Below, one piece after another: positions 33,899 through 62,402 of a DNA stretch of 64,000 bases (the first letter of the stretch is position 1; each line of letters starts with the position of its first letter). The stretch comes from Nitrosopumilus sp. (GTDB lineage Archaea > Thermoproteota > Nitrososphaeria > Nitrososphaerales > Nitrosopumilaceae). The position numbers and the translations under genes are program-made. The stretch covers positions 1,888,001 to 1,952,000 of the forward strand of contig OZ250186.1 in the NCBI GenBank assembly GCA_965238275.1, in the 5' to 3' direction. The notes under the pieces are model-generated. The model worked only from the letters and a program-made list of their open reading frames with translations, was not told where the DNA came from and did not search any database.

Positions 33899-33981
33899 GT
33901 TTACGTTGGTTCCAGGTGTTCTGTATCTTGACAATTGTACACGTATGAACATGCCCCTCTATTAGACCTTATGCATAGTAC

Positions 33982-35335
33982 AACTCTGTTTCCTAATTAC
34001 GCTCGACACAGATACTCGTCTGTGCAATTCTGCCTACGTCGTCGTCTTGCCCCCTTCCCTTGCAGTCCTTGGGCCGGGCTTGTAGGCTTGCACGATCCTT
34101 GGCGTGCCGTACCCGTTGTCGATTGCAGTATCGATCATCTGGTTGTACAGCTGCACCTTTCCGTATATCTCGGCCTTGACGTTCTCCCACTTGCGCGCGC
34201 TTATGCACTCGCCCAACACCCGCTTGAACGTGGAAAATACAATCTCGACTGACCACCGGTCGTTGTACCCTGACTCCCTGCGCCACGCCTTCTGGAATTC
34301 CCTCTTTTGTTCGCGCGTGAGGCCTGCAAACTTGCGTTCTGCCGTCTTGTCCATGCAGTCCAGGTCCCCCAGCTGCCTGAATCCTGCCTCCTTGCGGGGC
34401 ATGCACCCGTTCGCCTTTCCGGCAAAGTCGATGCGGACGGGAATCAGCGGCTCGATTCCCTGCTCGTCGCAGTACCTGCGGATCTTCTGGGTGTCGTACG
34501 CGCCGTCGGCTGCCGCCTTGGTGCCTGCAGAAGTGTCTGAGTTTGGTGATTTTTTTGCATTTGCAAGGGCCTGCCCCACCAGTTCCTCAAACTGCGGAGA
34601 GTCCCCGCACTTGTCGTCGGTTATGGCCACGGCGTAGATCTTTTTGGTTTTGGCATCCACCCCGACGTGCAGCTTTATGAAGCCCCGCCTGGTCCCCCAC
34701 TTTTCTGTCATCCAGTCGCCGCGGTTTGTGGGCTTGAGTCCAGTGGAGTCGAAGGCAAACAGCTTGATCTCGGCCCGGGTGCCGCCGTCTGAGAACCACG
34801 CAGAAGCCGTGCCGCTACCATCATCATTGTCTGCAACAGTGCAGCCAAGCTTGGTCATCCTCTTCTGGAACGCCGAGTACGTGGGCGCGTTTTCCTTGCC
34901 GACTATCGTCTCTGCCAGACCCTGGAGCTGCCTGTACCTTATGCCGGTGGCGTTTTTGAACAGGGATGCTGCTGCAAAGCACGCGTTTGAAAATACGTAC
35001 GGGCGGCCTACCTTCCCGCAGTTTAGCTTCTCGACTCCCTGAGTCAGGATCTCCGGGCTTATCTGGAGCGTCCACAACTGGCCGCGGTCTATGTACCTGC
35101 GGTCATCGTACTGGAACCGGCGTTCTTTGGATTTGAAAGATTTTTTAGCCTCATGCGTGCCCGTTTTGTCTGGAGAGGATGTGTTTTCAGTCATGGCTGT
35201 TACCTGACTGCCTGCACACCTCTCTGATCAATACGGTTTTCTATTGAAGATGTTTGATATGATGTTCAAATTCAACTGATCTGGCCTAATTCTGAACCTG
35301 TTGGGTGTGACTGGCGATAATTAGGAAACAAAGTT
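33982..35335 (-). mobile_element. IS5-family element (1354 bp), copy 2
   Basis: same TIRs; 8-bp TSD CATAGTAC (33974-33981, 35336-35343). Confidence 0.93.
34034..35194 (-). CDS. IS5-family (IS903-like) transposase
   Basis: identical 386-aa protein to 15167-16327. Confidence 0.9.
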   Translation of the reverse strand: MTENTSSPDKTGTHEAKKSFKSKERRFQYDDRRYIDRGQLWTLQISPEILTQGVEKLNCGKVGRPYVFSNACFAAASLFKNATGIRYRQLQGLAETIVGKENAPTYSAFQKRMTKLGCTVADNDDGSGTASAWFSDGGTRAEIKLFAFDSTGLKPTNRGDWMTEKWGTRRGFIKLHVGVDAKTKKIYAVAITDDKCGDSPQFEELVGQALANAKKSPNSDTSAGTKAAADGAYDTQKIRRYCDEQGIEPLIPVRIDFAGKANGCMPRKEAGFRQLGDLDCMDKTAERKFAGLTREQKREFQKAWRRESGYNDRWSVEIVFSTFKRVLGECISARKWENVKAEIYGKVQLYNQMIDTAIDNGYGTPRIVQAYKPGPRTAREGGKTTT

Positions 35336-35339
35336 CATA

Positions 35340-35505
35340 GTACGAGGTTGGTGAATACATGATAACCCCACCCACCCACCACATGTGGCGGGCTGACCCC
35401 TGATTACGCATGGTCACAAAGACCTCGTTGGTGAATGGGGCTATCCGAGCTGCTGTGTTACTGGACTCCGAGTCCTGATAGATGTATGCAGCTACCGGCC
35501 TGTCA
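35340..35505 (+). ncRNA. putative IS110 bridge RNA
   Basis: stems CGAGGT/ACCTCG, TGACC/GGTCA, AGCTGC/GCAGCT, GGACT/AGTCC; segments matching target and donor junctions; position upstream of an IS110 recombinase. Confidence 0.6.
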
Positions 35506-35520
35506 CACAAAAAAAGGGAG

Positions 35521-36597
35521 GTGAAAGAAATAGAAAAGAGTATTGGAATCGACATAGGAAAGAGAAAGTGCGTAGTGTGTATAATGAAACACAAGGGGAC
35601 AATTCTCGAAGAGTCATCGTACGACAACACGTCCCGGGATGCATTGGATTTTGCAGAATACGTAAAGGCCACATACGGCCAGTGCAAGGCAGTCTGCGAA
35701 TCCACCGGAAACCACTGGATAAAGACTGCAGACGCCTTTGAATCTGTCGGAGTCCCGCTGACTCTTGCCAATCCGTTCAAGGTCAAGGCAATCGCATGGG
35801 CCAAAATAAAAAACGACACCATAGACGCAAGAACGCTTGCCCACCTGCTGCGGGCCGACCTGGTTCCAGGCTGCCACATAGGTTCGGCCGAATCCCGGGG
35901 AATTAAGCAGGTCCTCAGGTACCAGATGACCCTAGTGCAGAACCGAACAAAAGTGATCAACTTTATGCACACGCTGACAGACAAATACGACATAAATCCA
36001 AAGAATGCAGGAGCCAGCGTCTGGAGACCAAAGGTCCTAAAGTACCTTGAAGAGGCAGACATGAAGAATTCCAGGGACAGGTTTGTTCTGGACGGCTGCA
36101 TATCGCAGATACGGTACTACAACGACGAGATAAAAAAGACCGAAGACGAGATCAAGCGCTACGTCCGAGACGCCCACGCCCCGAAGATACTGCTGAGTAT
36201 GACGGGGATGAACGTGTTTTCTGCGGCGCTGCTGGCAGCAGAGATCGACACTATCGAAAGGTTTGAGAACCCAAAAAAACTCGTATCCTGGGCAGGCATG
36301 TGCCCGACGCTTCACCAGTCAGGCGACACGTCATACCACGGCAGGATGAAAAAGGACTCGAATCGGAAGGTCAACTGGATCATGATCCAGTGCGCGCTTG
36401 TGGCAGTGTTCCATGACGCAAGGATGAAGGAATACTACACGCGCCTCCTGAAGAGGCACAAGCACCACATCGCCATAACGCACGTCGCAAACAAGATGCT
36501 GACGATCATCTGGCACATGCTGACAGAAGGCAACCTGTACGAGGACAGAAACGAGAAACTGTACCGCGCCAAGATCAAAGAAGTCATGAAGGCGTAG
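35521..36597 (+). CDS. IS110-family recombinase/transposase
   Basis: IGIDIGK, VCESTG, KNDTIDA (DEDD); SWAGMCPTLHQSG with catalytic Ser; IAITHVANKML. Confidence 0.93.
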   Translation: MKEIEKSIGIDIGKRKCVVCIMKHKGTILEESSYDNTSRDALDFAEYVKATYGQCKAVCESTGNHWIKTADAFESVGVPLTLANPFKVKAIAWAKIKNDTIDARTLAHLLRADLVPGCHIGSAESRGIKQVLRYQMTLVQNRTKVINFMHTLTDKYDINPKNAGASVWRPKVLKYLEEADMKNSRDRFVLDGCISQIRYYNDEIKKTEDEIKRYVRDAHAPKILLSMTGMNVFSAALLAAEIDTIERFENPKKLVSWAGMCPTLHQSGDTSYHGRMKKDSNRKVNWIMIQCALVAVFHDARMKEYYTRLLKRHKHHIAITHVANKMLTIIWHMLTEGNLYEDRNEKLYRAKIKEVMKA

Positions 36598-36978
36598 ACG
36601 CAGAACCGGCAATGTCAGTAGACGATGATGCCGGATCTAGCGGATGCTGTGCACGAATCATGGGAATGGCGGGTGTTTTTACATGAATACGGGGTGTTTT
36701 TACATGAATGCTGGGGGGCCAGCCCCCCAGACCCCCCGAAGGAGGATTATGCATGTCACGCCGCGGGGCAAAAGCCACATTTTCTGCGGATCCGGCAGGA
36801 TTCTACTCGCAGGTAACGCTTAAGAAGGCAAAAAACATACCCAAGGTGACAAGTTGGACGCAAAACCTGGATAAGTCCGGGGATGGGTTAACATAGATGC
36901 GTAATTCCGATATGTCCTAATCTGAATATTTCCCGCCGCATTCTCACGGGCGGGGTCAGATACGGACGGGTTGGATCA

Positions 36979-37900
36979 TCAGGCGCACTCCGTGCAAACC
37001 GGGCCGCCGTAGGACGGTATCGGTATATTTAGCCGGCAGGCACACTCAAACCGGTTGAGGACCCGGATGTTCCATGAGATTGCTCGTCCCTTGGCAAACC
37101 GGCGCCGATTGTCTTCGCGCACGAACCTGCAGTGAAGCTGGTGCCGCCGGCTCTCCTCGGCCCCGAATATGCCTTCCACCAGGGCTCTTGTCTTGTACTC
37201 GTGCGAGTCAAACAGCCCGGCTGCCTTCTTCCTGCTTGGCTTGCCCCTGCTGACGGCGTCCTTTCTCTGCTTGATGTTGGGCGTCATGCCCATCCAGAAC
37301 AGATCCTTGAAGTTGTAGTCGGCGTCATACCCGCGGTCCGCATCAAAGACGTTCCCCGAAAAGTCAAACCCGCGGCGTCTGATCTCTGCCAGCATGACTG
37401 GCAGCATCGTGACGTCGTTGACGTTACCCGGCGTGGCAAACGTGACCAGCACAATCTGTAGTCCCAGGATGGCCGTTATGTGGTATTTCCAGTAGGTTTT
37501 TTGACGCATCTCGACGAAATTACGCTCCTTTTTGTAGGGTTTTTCGATGTCTTCGTACCTGGTAGTCTCCACCCCGCTGCTGTCTGCGGCCAGCGGCCCG
37601 TCCAGAAACCGGACATGAATCCTGAGATCAATGAATTTGGAGCATCGTGCATGGCACAAGCTGTCTGCGTGCGTATCCGTCGTGGTTTGGTGCCTTCTCA
37701 GATGACCAGATACGGAAAATTCTCGACTACCAGATTCGGTTTTTTGTACCTCGTGTACCTGGTAATCGCCTCTCGGAGCATGCGCAGGCTGGTGTACGGC
37801 ACGTCAAGCACTGCCCGCTTGAGATCCCCCGGTACGTCTCTATGGCGCTCAGGTTCGGGGTTGCAGTTAGCAAGAAGACTGTCTCCGGGCCGTCTATTCT
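36979..37900 (-). pseudogene. degenerate IS5-family transposase
   Basis: AADSSG, YWKYH, DADRGYD, YKTRALVEGIFG in 36979-37659; 5' part broken. Confidence 0.75.
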
Positions 37901-37935
37901 AACATAATACGTATTGTCACATCATTTGTAGCACA

Positions 37936-38106
37936 TCAAATCTGGCCAGTGAAAATCCCCATTCACCGTCAAGACGGTATTTGACCATCCGCATACATTG
38001 GGCCACTCTTTCGCACGCCATCACAAGTGGCAAGTTCGTGTCGACTCTCAGGTCCAACAGGGTAAATGCCAAGATCACCGCTATAACGGCAACACATGGC
38101 GTCTTT
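37936..38106. repeat. ~170-bp dispersed direct repeat, copy 2
   Basis: see 32601-32772. Confidence 0.85.
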
Positions 38107-38134
38107 CGTTTTTCACCATAGTAGTGTATGTTGT

Positions 38135-60595: not shown

Positions 60596-60941
60596 GACGA
60601 AGGCAAATTCGATTTTGTATCGACTAGCAACCTGCACCATTTAGAAATACATGCCGGCAAGTTCCTCACGCACATGCACAATCAGCTCAAGGAAGAACTG
60701 CACCAGGAACACAACAAAGACACGGACGGTTAACGTTCTATTCAGCCATAGCGATATTCGATTCTTTTTGTTTGATAGTATAATAGAAGATATGCGTAAT
60801 CCGCCCATTTCGCCAACTCGGTCATAAAAAACCGGAAAAATACGGCCTAAAACTACTCGTGTCTGGCATGTGGCAAGTCCGTTCACCCCAAAATCCAAAA
60901 TGACGTGCGCAGCCTTGCAGCACTTCATCGTGCCCTGAATT

Positions 60942-62312
60942 CTACTTGACCGGAGCTTGGGAGCAGGCCCTGTCCCAGTCTACTGACGTCTTCCACTGCC
61001 CCGGTGGTGGCGGGCCCTTTTCCATGCAGTCCCACAAAAGATTCAGGTTTACCAGCCCTGTGATCACGTTGAACTCCCTGTTGAACCCGGCTGCGTTGCC
61101 GTCGTACGGGTCGGTGAGGCGCGCGTAGCGCTTGAGCCTGCCTATCGTGTGCTCCACCAACACCCGGGTGGAGTTGATCCTGTGGTTGTGCTTTTTTTGC
61201 TCCGGCGTCAGCGGCGTGTCCCTGGTCTTCTTGTGCGGGATCTCCGGCGTGGTGCCGGGCAGGTGGTCTGCGATTCCCTGGTAGCCGCGGTCGACGAATG
61301 GGTGGCACCTGTCTGATTCTGGCAGGTCCGGATCGTGCATCGCCTTCTCCCACTTTCCAAACGGCATGGGGCGTTCCTTGAGCAGCGTGATGTCGCCGAC
61401 TGACCCGACGGTGCTTTTTGATATGCCGATCACCACCCCGTTCCGGTTGGTGTACACGTTGGTATTGTTGGTAAACTTTTTCTTCTTGCCGGAGTATTTC
61501 ATGCGCCGGACTGACTTTACGGACGGGCGCTGTATGGGGCAGTGCGTGCCGTCTATGAAGATCTCGCCCCCATCCGATCCGGGCACGATCTTCTTGAAAT
61601 CTTCCCTGGTCGGGGCAGCAGCTACCTCCTCGGATATGTTGTCTGCCGTCGGAAGTATTCCTGCCAGCATCGCGTCCATCACAGGAAAGTACCGGGACAC
61701 GGTGGACTGGTCTATCCCGAAGAACGCGGCAAGCGTTCCCTGCGTGATGTTTTCCTTTTTGTGCATCAGCGCCATGAGCAGCGCGTGCCTCAGGTGCAGC
61801 TTGCACCGGTTTCCGGGATCGGAGGCCCGGGATGCGTTATCGCAGAACAGCGGCATCTGGCCCGAATGCGTCAGAAACACCTTGGCCCGCTCCAGCATGT
61901 ACCGGAACTGTTCCCCGTCTGCCAGCGTGGCATGGCGGAGCTTGTCCCCGTCGCGTATTATGTCGTCTAGCACCTCTAGCAGATGCAGCGCGGGCCCCTT
62001 GCCGGGGTTCCAGCCATCGTCCCTGCTCTTCCACAGGCCGCGCTCAAGGCCCAGCTCCCTGTCTTTCTGCTCCAGCTTTTTGTCTTTCTGCTTTAGAATA
62101 TTTTTTAGGCTTTTGTTTTCCTGCTCCAGCTTTTTGTCTTTCTGCTCCAGCTTTTTGTCTTTCTGCTTTAGAATATTTTTTAGGCTTTTGTTTTCCTGCT
62201 CCAGCTTTTTGTCTTTCTGCTCCAGCTTTTTGTCTTTCTGCTTTAGAATATTTTTTAGTCTTTTGTTTTCCTGCTGCAACTTGTATATGATCTGATCAGG
62301 CGAGTCTGGCAT
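60942..62312 (-). CDS. ISL2-like transposase with expanded N-terminal coiled coil
   Basis: FFGIDQSTVSR, IDGT, YSGKKKK, DRGYQG, RVLVEHTIG. Confidence 0.88.
   Translation of the reverse strand: MPDSPDQIIYKLQQENKRLKNILKQKDKKLEQKDKKLEQENKSLKNILKQKDKKLEQKDKKLEQENKSLKNILKQKDKKLEQKDRELGLERGLWKSRDDGWNPGKGPALHLLEVLDDIIRDGDKLRHATLADGEQFRYMLERAKVFLTHSGQMPLFCDNASRASDPGNRCKLHLRHALLMALMHKKENITQGTLAAFFGIDQSTVSRYFPVMDAMLAGILPTADNISEEVAAAPTREDFKKIVPGSDGGEIFIDGTHCPIQRPSVKSVRRMKYSGKKKKFTNNTNVYTNRNGVVIGISKSTVGSVGDITLLKERPMPFGKWEKAMHDPDLPESDRCHPFVDRGYQGIADHLPGTTPEIPHKKTRDTPLTPEQKKHNHRINSTRVLVEHTIGRLKRYARLTDPYDGNAAGFNREFNVITGLVNLNLLWDCMEKGPPPPGQWKTSVDWDRACSQAPVK
62060..62275 (-). repeat. in-frame 75-bp tandem repeat with nested 21-bp repeat
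   Basis: (ENKSLKNILKQKDKKLEQKDKKLEQ) x ~3. Confidence 0.9.
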
Positions 62313-62402
62313 TTGATGTGAGACACGATCGTGCCTGATCTAAATTTATCGATGTGGACAGGGGGATTACGCATATTCTCTAATGGGTGCTTGGAGCATG
62401 TT

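Follow-up and report, generated by a model that had tools for sequence, protein, structure and literature searches.

The stretch of DNA analysed here (the window; 64,000 nucleotides of Nitrosopumilus sp., family Nitrosopumilaceae, order Nitrososphaerales; contig OZ250186.1 of assembly GCA_965238275.1, positions 1,888,001 to 1,952,000) carries at 35352-36899 an IS1111-like element of 1546 bp plus one extra TG, in which a DEDD transposase gene lies between two non-coding regions (Table 1). The element is inserted inside the left 18-bp terminal inverted repeat (TIR) of an IS5-type transposon, here called IS-B, and splits that repeat into GAGGTTGG-TG and CGTAATTC... A second IS5-family transposon, IS-A, is located to the left of the element, 8 nt beyond its end, and abuts the outer end of the IS-B repeat. 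We put the probability at about 0.85 that 35352-36899 is an RNA-guided insertion sequence (IS) of the IS110 superfamily with IS1111-type ends, programmed for the IS-B TIR. This reading is carried by the observed boundaries of the element, the fold of its RNA, the matches and covariation between guides and DNA, and the TIR context. Judged from its sequence, the element is a known kind of RNA-guided IS in a variant layout, with IS1111-like ends and guide order and with the RNA upstream of the transposase gene.

Table 1. Features of the insertion sequence and of the adjoining DNA (window positions)
Feature	Position	Strand	Basis or remarks
IS-A, IS5-family, 1354 bp, transposase open reading frame (ORF) 34034-35194	33982-35335	-	Pfam DDE_Tnp_1; NCBIfam NF033579
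Outer 8 nt of IS-B left TIR (GAGGTTGG), left target half	35344-35351	+	uninterrupted IS-B copies; last 5 nt GTTGG match guide
IS110-superfamily element	35352-36899	+	alignment of relatives; empty sites
Core dinucleotide TG	35352-35353 (left copy), 36898-36899 (right copy)	+	empty sites; junctions of relatives
Left subterminal inverted repeat ATGATAACCC	35359-35368	+	7 nt (TGAATAC, TG included) from left end
Predicted bridge/seek RNA core	35387-35504	+	RNAalifold, pair counts, covariance model
P1	35387-95 with 35496-504		long-range helix, compensatory changes in 8 of 9 pairs
P2	35397-400 with 35437-40		
P3	35412-15 with 35421-24		
P4	35448-53 with 35488-93		
P5	35463-67 with 35471-75		
Target loop 5' strand UGAUUACGCAU, right target guide	35401-35411	+	complement of top strand A-TG-CGTAATCA; contains ATTACGCAT
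Target loop 3' strand UCGUUGG-UG-AAU, left target guide	35425-35436	+	same sense as left flank and core
Donor loop 5' strand UGUGUUAC, right donor guide	35454-35461	+	complement (with G:U) of left-end AATACA after core
Donor loop 3' strand UGAUAGA-UG-UAU, left donor guide	35476-35487	+	same sense as right end ATAGA-TG
DEDD transposase gene, longest ORF	35482-36597	+	Pfam DEDD_Tnp_IS110 and Transposase_20; NF033542
Downstream non-coding region, about 300 nt	36598-36884	+	sequence; last ~80 nt conserved in relatives
Right subterminal inverted repeat GGGTTAACAT	36885-36894	+	followed by AGA (3 nt) and core TG
Remainder of IS-B	36900-37600	+	right target half CGTAAT... starts at 36900; Pfam DDE_Tnp_1

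Extent and core of the element

The ends were placed by comparing about 100 relatives, among them nine loci in one Nitrosopumilus metagenome-assembled genome (MAG) and others elsewhere, and with the help of two places in the same genome where the target is uninterrupted. On the right, every relative terminates at ...CATAG(A/G)TG and the sequences differ beyond it; on the left, similarity among relatives starts at TGAA(T/C)ACATG, also written TGAA(T/C)ACATGATAACC. The right-flank repeat is uninterrupted at positions 387077 and 760990 of the genome (G000), where it reads GAGGTTGGTGCGTAATTCC (also written ...GAGGTTGGTGCGTAATTCCGATATGTCC) and GAGGTTGGTGCATAATTC, respectively. The insertion in the window is therefore GAGGTTGG-TG-[element]-CGTAATTCC, with TG as the core. 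Since TG is found at both junctions but only once in the empty site, the insertion produced no target duplication; a shared core without target duplication is what the IS110 superfamily leads one to expect.

The genome is a single 2.217-Mb contig, in which the window element is the sole full-length copy. Other remnants comprise a truncated copy with a right end (287163-288238), one fragment, and four solo left ends (L004-L007, at G000 1974615, 1090160, 1092042 and 1201921). Each solo end holds a copy of the bridge RNA with its own, different guide loops and without a transposase gene; those at 1090 kb and 1092 kb have a common upstream flank, which suggests a local duplication. A copy 95% identical to the window element is present in another genome.

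The downstream non-coding region contains, at 36671-36711, a tandem 20-21-nt repeat, GGG(G)TGTTTTTACATGAAT(A/G)C, followed on its 3' side by a G6/C6 hairpin at 36712-36729. The ..TTTTTACA-TG-AATAC of this repeat resembles the junction of the right and left ends of a related element.

The transposase

The longest ORF has both domains expected in the superfamily, matching Pfam DEDD_Tnp_IS110 (RuvC-like) and Transposase_20 with E values of 9e-23 and 1.8e-22, and scores 225.8 bits (cut-off 140) against the NCBIfam model NF033542, "IS110 family RNA-guided transposase", of which it covers positions 2-341 of 343. The solved transposases are distant relatives (E 9e-12 for ISCro4 and 2e-11 for IS621). 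In the alignment with ISCro4, the D (IGID), E (ES), D..D (NDtiDA; (N/T)D..DAR) and S-G residues are identical, and the IGID, ES, D..DAR and SG residues are the catalytic ones according to PMC11208158. The longest ORF begins at an ATG inside the donor loop of the predicted RNA. The real start probably lies near 35521-35532, after a Shine-Dalgarno-like GGAGGTG at 35517-23. Because of this motif, and because the ATG of relatives is aligned near 35530, the position suggests a non-ATG start in the window copy, either GTG at 35521 or ATA at 35530.

Fold of the left-end RNA

A consensus fold was obtained from 23 aligned left ends and then extended to five helices, in which a 9-bp closing helix (P1) surrounds two internal loops. 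Of the cells in these 23 sequences, 92.2% are paired, and both partners have changed in 15 of the 28 pairs. In 500 shuffles no equally good result arose, and sliding the partners by 1-3 columns lowered the paired fraction to 29-50%. The window sequence on its own has a minimum-free-energy z-score of -3.0, and its centroid fold gives the same helices. The RNA is assigned to the + strand on account of its G:U pairs. A 5' hairpin considered initially (CCCAC...GUGG-CGGG) was replaced by P1.

Of 151 genomes sampled from the family, 28 contain matches to the covariance model, more than 150 hits in all; the tally of genomes includes the window's genome and G268, which is unpublished and whose sequence was not used. 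A plain DNA search of 401 genomes of the order recovered the RNA from 15. Rfam gave no match to the region that reached the gathering scores. The best haloarchaeal protein relative, on a Haloarcula plasmid (34% identity), gave no significant match to the covariance model R1 (E 0.16).

Guide strands and their DNA partners

We fetched 96 regions and aligned 101 model hits. At the window site, the target loop matches GTTGG-TG-CGTAAT at all 13 positions (5/5, the TG, and 6/6): the left target guide agrees with left-flank positions -5 to -1, and the right target guide (UGAUUACG-CA-U) with right-flank positions +1 to +6. Among the relatives, right target guides and their own right flanks have 57-77% identity at +1 to +6, as against 25-28% for non-cognate pairs, or 4.49 matches out of 8 against 2.05 (63 of 101 rows usable, 29 unique guides). 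Left target guides and left flanks have 58-89% identity at -5 to -1, non-cognate pairs 24-37%, or 4.30 matches out of 7 against 1.79 (91 of 101 rows usable, 50 unique guides). In neither case did any of 10,000 permutations reach so high a value.

The donor loop behaves in the same manner towards the ends of the element itself. For the right donor guide, covariation is seen with positions 3-8 of the left end (133 of 174 matches), a value reached by 0 of 10,000 permutations. The left donor guide, the fourth strand, was checked by means of its 7-mer (AUAGAUG and variants), which the right end of the same element contains in 11/18, 11/16, 20/26, 0/6, 8/9 and 12/13 cases by class, non-cognate 7-mers being seldom present at right ends. 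All four guide strands covary with their DNA partners across relatives, and by complementarity the RNA loops match each strand of the target as well as each strand of the joined ends, as in the IS110 superfamily. No clear "handshake" signal was seen between the 3 nt after the core in the donor loop 3' strand and the first 3 nt of the right flank, the identity being 1.07 of 3 for cognate and 0.81 for non-cognate pairs.

An initial annotation of this DNA had assigned the element to the IS110 superfamily and placed a guide RNA in the non-coding left end, a proposal that the fold and the guide covariation bear out; it had also staked its reading on the matches covarying with targets across homologs, which they do. 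Its starting point holds as well, in that ATTACGCAT (35403-35411) is the exact reverse complement of ATGCGTAAT (36897-36905), a 9-nt match for which a rough estimate of the chance expectation, for a 166-nt end and a 20-nt flank, is about 0.007. The putative donor match ATAGATGTAT is present at 35478-35487, although only its ATAGATG truly matches, with the right end, and the last three letters are without covariation. In place of the TGACC/GGTCA stem suggested for the target loop, covariation supports CCCC/GGGG and GGTC/GACC.

The targeted transposon and its surroundings

The 18-bp TIR of IS-B reads G(A/G)GGTTGGTGCGTAATTC, and the 13-nt programmed site occupies its positions 4-16. Besides the split site, the 13-mer GTTGGTGCGTAAT occurs at exactly two places in the genome, which are both TIRs of the intact IS-B copy at 387077-388246. 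This complete copy encodes a 333-aa DDE protein with weak matches to the IS5 family. The remnant in the window is 98% identical over 701 nt to G000 387087-387787 and 93% identical to the copy at 761002. Its transposase ORF is shortened (36979-37659, minus strand), and the transposon is cut at about 37600 by other repeats. A search for inverted repeats to the right of the element was unproductive, since the window holds only a truncated IS-B. Two elements in a related MAG (L031 and L038) are inserted in the other TIR of the IS-B type, with left flank ..GAGGTTGG and right flank CGTAATTCTTCTGACCGCCTAG; their outer flanks differ, and they were counted as independent insertions.

IS-A scores 193 bits against the NCBIfam IS5 model NF033579 (cut-off 140) and is bordered by an 8-bp target duplication, CATAGTAC, at 33974-81 and 35336-43. 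One metagenome contig without IS-A joins 33973 to 35336 with 8 nt shared, which is the empty site of IS-A. IS-A appears to be polymorphic and is probably the most recent insertion of this nest.

To the right of the cut IS-B, the DNA at 37596-38123 is a mosaic of other repeats. One is a family of about 258 bp (37638-37895) with some 15 copies in the genome; the sequence at 37891-38123 has 84-87% identity to DNA beside four distant IS110-family transposase genes (G000 2149651, 827296, 504144 and 1289005). A related element in MAG OZ244651.1 (L034, 83% identical) adjoins the same orthologous Band-7/SPFH gene flank as the window element and occupies a different TIR-like site (TAGCCTGT-TG-CATAATTACGCC). 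The common location may reflect either an insertion nest shared since long ago or a hot spot for IS insertion. The genome abounds in an ISL2-like IS5 family whose ends are TAGAA(G/A)ATATGCGTAATCC, a copy of which occupies 60785-62381 of the window. The ends of this family make up dozens of the TGCGTAAT sites listed, and its TIR core, TGCGTAAT(C/T)C, resembles that of IS-B.

Insertion sites of relatives

In genome G437, eight copies are found at ..CTGT-TG-CATAAC(C/T), the ends of at least three repeat classes, one of which is a miniature inverted-repeat transposable element (MITE) of about 90 bp showing both ends. The left outer flanks of these copies are unrelated. Within G437, 21 and 35 matches exist for two of the right-flank repeats, and six of six uninterrupted copies fetched for one class read (T)AGnnTGT-TG-CATAACTCC, preceded by unrelated DNA before TAG. 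Copies in G310 are at TAGTCTGT-TG-CACAACT, and the MAG copies L034, L035 and L040 at TAGCC(T/C)GT-TG-CATAATT. The G235 copies (AATTG-TG-CAAC) have unrelated flanks, one right flank being unique in its genome (1 match), and the flanks of the G092 copies are unrelated to one another; targeting of transposon ends is therefore a habit of some clades, not all. Related copies elsewhere in the Nitrosopumilaceae target the TIRs of other IS5-type elements and MITEs, and some clades target unique DNA.

Two of these loci show elements in close company. At L107 (G437:C2:2949831-2951861), both terminal repeats of a MITE of about 90 bp seem to be occupied by two elements of the family in opposite orientation, the second being visible as the reverse complement of ...GTAACATAGATG. 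At L140 (G235:C1:242277-244307), the right flank starts with AAAGCCTGTAAA, the left end of a different subfamily, so that the two elements lie head to tail.

Comparison with known systems

As Partridge and Hall reportedly described in 2003, IS4321 and IS5075 of the IS1111 group enter the 38-bp TIRs of Tn21-family transposons, always at the same position. The window element resembles these two in its DEDD transposase, its subterminal inverted repeats and its oriented insertion inside the TIR of another transposon, and its protein aligns with that of IS5075 over residues 9-347 (94% coverage) with only 21.6% identity. Unlike them, it resides in an archaeon, it targets TIRs of IS5-type transposons and MITEs rather than of the Tn3 family, and its guide RNA is upstream of the transposase gene, not downstream.

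According to Siddiquee et al. 2024 (PMC11187229), the IS1111 type has the complement of the top strand first, subterminal inverted repeats, terminal extensions of 7 and 3 nt, and a seekRNA encoded in the non-coding DNA that follows the transposase gene. Exceptions given there, by position of the non-coding region, are ISMtsp17 (upstream) and ISHvo10 and ISAcp5 (both sides). The window element agrees with the order of guides, since the top-strand complement (35401-11) precedes the bottom-strand match (35425-36), and its subterminal repeats pair at 9 of 10 positions, the 10 bp falling within the approximately 7-17 bp of IS1111 repeats. Relatives differ in this repeat, but in each element the two ends agree, as 35 distinct end pairs show; L100, L086 and L170 are examples. 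With TG counted once, the left extension measures 7 nt and the right one 3 nt, as in ISEc11, ISKpn4 and ISPa11, which also have subterminal inverted repeats (PMC11187229). The seekRNA of those three is downstream, whereas both guide loops of the window element are upstream of its gene, the downstream non-coding region of about 300 nt being present as well.

The loops of IS621 consist of a stem, the left guide, a stem-loop and the right guide (Hiraizumi et al. 2024, PMC11208158). Like the window element, IS621 has a left-end RNA with two internal loops, a core dinucleotide, and no target duplication, according to the same paper and to Durrant et al. 2024 (PMC11208160). In contrast to IS621, the window element has TG rather than CT as its core, its right guide comes first, a 9-bp helix closes both loops, and its protein is only distantly related. 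With this reversed order and a subterminal repeat of 10 bp as opposed to 2-3 bp, it departs from the strict, IS621-like IS110 group. No such element is described in the titles and abstract openings found for IS110 or bridge RNA together with Nitrosopumilus, Thaumarchaeota or Nitrososphaerota; the supplementary bridge-RNA lists (Durrant et al., including Table 5; Siddiquee et al., Fig. 2) might include relatives.

Alternative explanations

The initial annotation had drawn the IS110 element at 33975-36896, with an ATGC core, a nested IS5, the target AGACCTT-ATGC-GTAATTCC, and the ISL2-like TIRs as the repeats aimed at. ATGC does occur at both of the proposed junctions, ATGCGTAAT is found in the ISL2-like TIRs, and ATATGCGTAATCC is carried, as claimed, by both ends of the element at about 60785-62381. 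This anatomy is nevertheless very improbable, as relatives have nothing in common to the left of TGAA(T/C)ACATG, the match to a metagenome unitig with a related left end begins exactly at 35352, and the two empty sites refute it outright; the shared ATGC is coincidental, and the supposed nested IS5 is IS-A. The ISL2-like TIR (..AGA(A/T)ATA-TG-CGTAATCC) matches the right guide only, the left guide GTTGG mismatching ..AGATA, and the window site is the only one of the listed TGCGTAAT sites to be preceded by the right end of the element, no listed ISL2-like TIR site being occupied. The transposon targeted is IS-B, and the more general proposal of a target in another transposon's TIR, as with IS4321/IS5075 in Tn21-family TIRs, survives, the site splitting the IS-B TIR. 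Also very improbable is the idea that the left end is a mere 5' leader that regulates translation of the transposase, with the protein choosing the site. Two features would suit a leader, namely that the RNA directly adjoins the GGAGGTG and that the donor loop lies partly within the longest ORF, but a leader gives no reason for covariation with flanking host DNA at 5 and 6 positions or with both ends of the element, and homologous systems have been found experimentally to be RNA-guided (PMC11208160, PMC11187229).

The element could also be a dead relic that is no longer expressed or active, its fold and guide matches having been left behind by an earlier insertion. A genome with a single full copy, truncated copies and four solo left ends, in which two perfect target sites stand empty, is what such a relic might leave, and the same facts qualify the suggestion of the initial annotation that an expanding IS family is being parasitised, which is plausible as a family-wide habit. 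We consider a relic rather unlikely, given that the transposase frame is open and nearly the whole of its NCBIfam model is matched, that the two ends, the subterminal repeats and the five helices have all remained intact, with a full guide-site match, and that the 95%-identical copy exists elsewhere. An RNA-guided insertion sequence programmed for the IS-B TIR remains our preferred reading, against which several points must be set. The genome has this one full copy and two vacant perfect sites, and the window copy may be inactive or rarely active. Metagenome contigs contained no circle junction or excision joint of the element, which is weak evidence because contigs drop rare forms; the many loose ends at 35432 in these contigs show other guide-loop variants. 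The alignment was fitted to the model, not all of its rows were usable in the two flank tests, right ends were found through each element's own donor 7-mer, and, since related sequences are not independent, the permutation figures suggest more separate events than there were. Finally, the donor-loop 5' strand has no simple register with the core, its positions 1-2 matching in 8% and 26% of cases.

Proposed mechanism

Under the RNA-guided reading, the upstream non-coding region would encode a bridge/seek RNA with its core at 35387-35504. Its transcription might proceed from a TATA-like TTAACATA in the right end, which circle formation would bring upstream; in the IS110 superfamily the circular intermediate characteristically gives rise to a promoter. 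The RNA would form a complex with the transposase, and the donor-loop strands would recognise the joined ends of the element, ...ATAGA-TG-AATACA..., in a circle whose predicted junction is ...ACATAGA-TG-AATACATG..., that is, ...GGGTTAACATAGA-TG-AATACATGATAACC... The DEDD/Ser recombinase would then exchange strands at the TG core, so that the circularised element is inserted without target duplication. Splitting of the TIR may disable IS-B.

Implications

RNA-guided IS110/IS1111 elements and the targeting of TIRs by IS4321/IS5075 are already known, and the element does not represent a new principle. It does provide a natural archaeal data set, in which the model hits and genomes counted above allow four guide strands to be read against their DNA partners, and a compact 13-nt target rule (5 + TG + 6) that is directly testable. 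Its mixed layout, with IS1111-type ends and order and an upstream RNA, is relevant to how the RNA moved between ends in the evolution of the family, and the ends of transposons and MITEs emerge as "safe harbour" targets in ammonia-oxidising archaea.

A broader proposal, which we advance tentatively and which is still somewhat on the unlikely side, is that an IS1111-like clade found throughout the Nitrosopumilaceae consists of RNA-guided hyperparasites of IS5-type transposons and MITEs. Their 5+2+6-nt guide would have been retuned repeatedly to diverging TIRs, as the series GTTGG-TG-CGTAAT, CCTGT-TG-CATAA(T/C) and TCTGT-TG-CACAAC may illustrate; each insertion would split a repeat and disable that end, and the combination of an upstream RNA with IS1111-type ends would represent an evolutionary intermediate linking the two architectures known so far. 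If this is true, such hyperparasites would shape, and perhaps restrain, the expansions of IS5 elements in ammonia-oxidising archaea.

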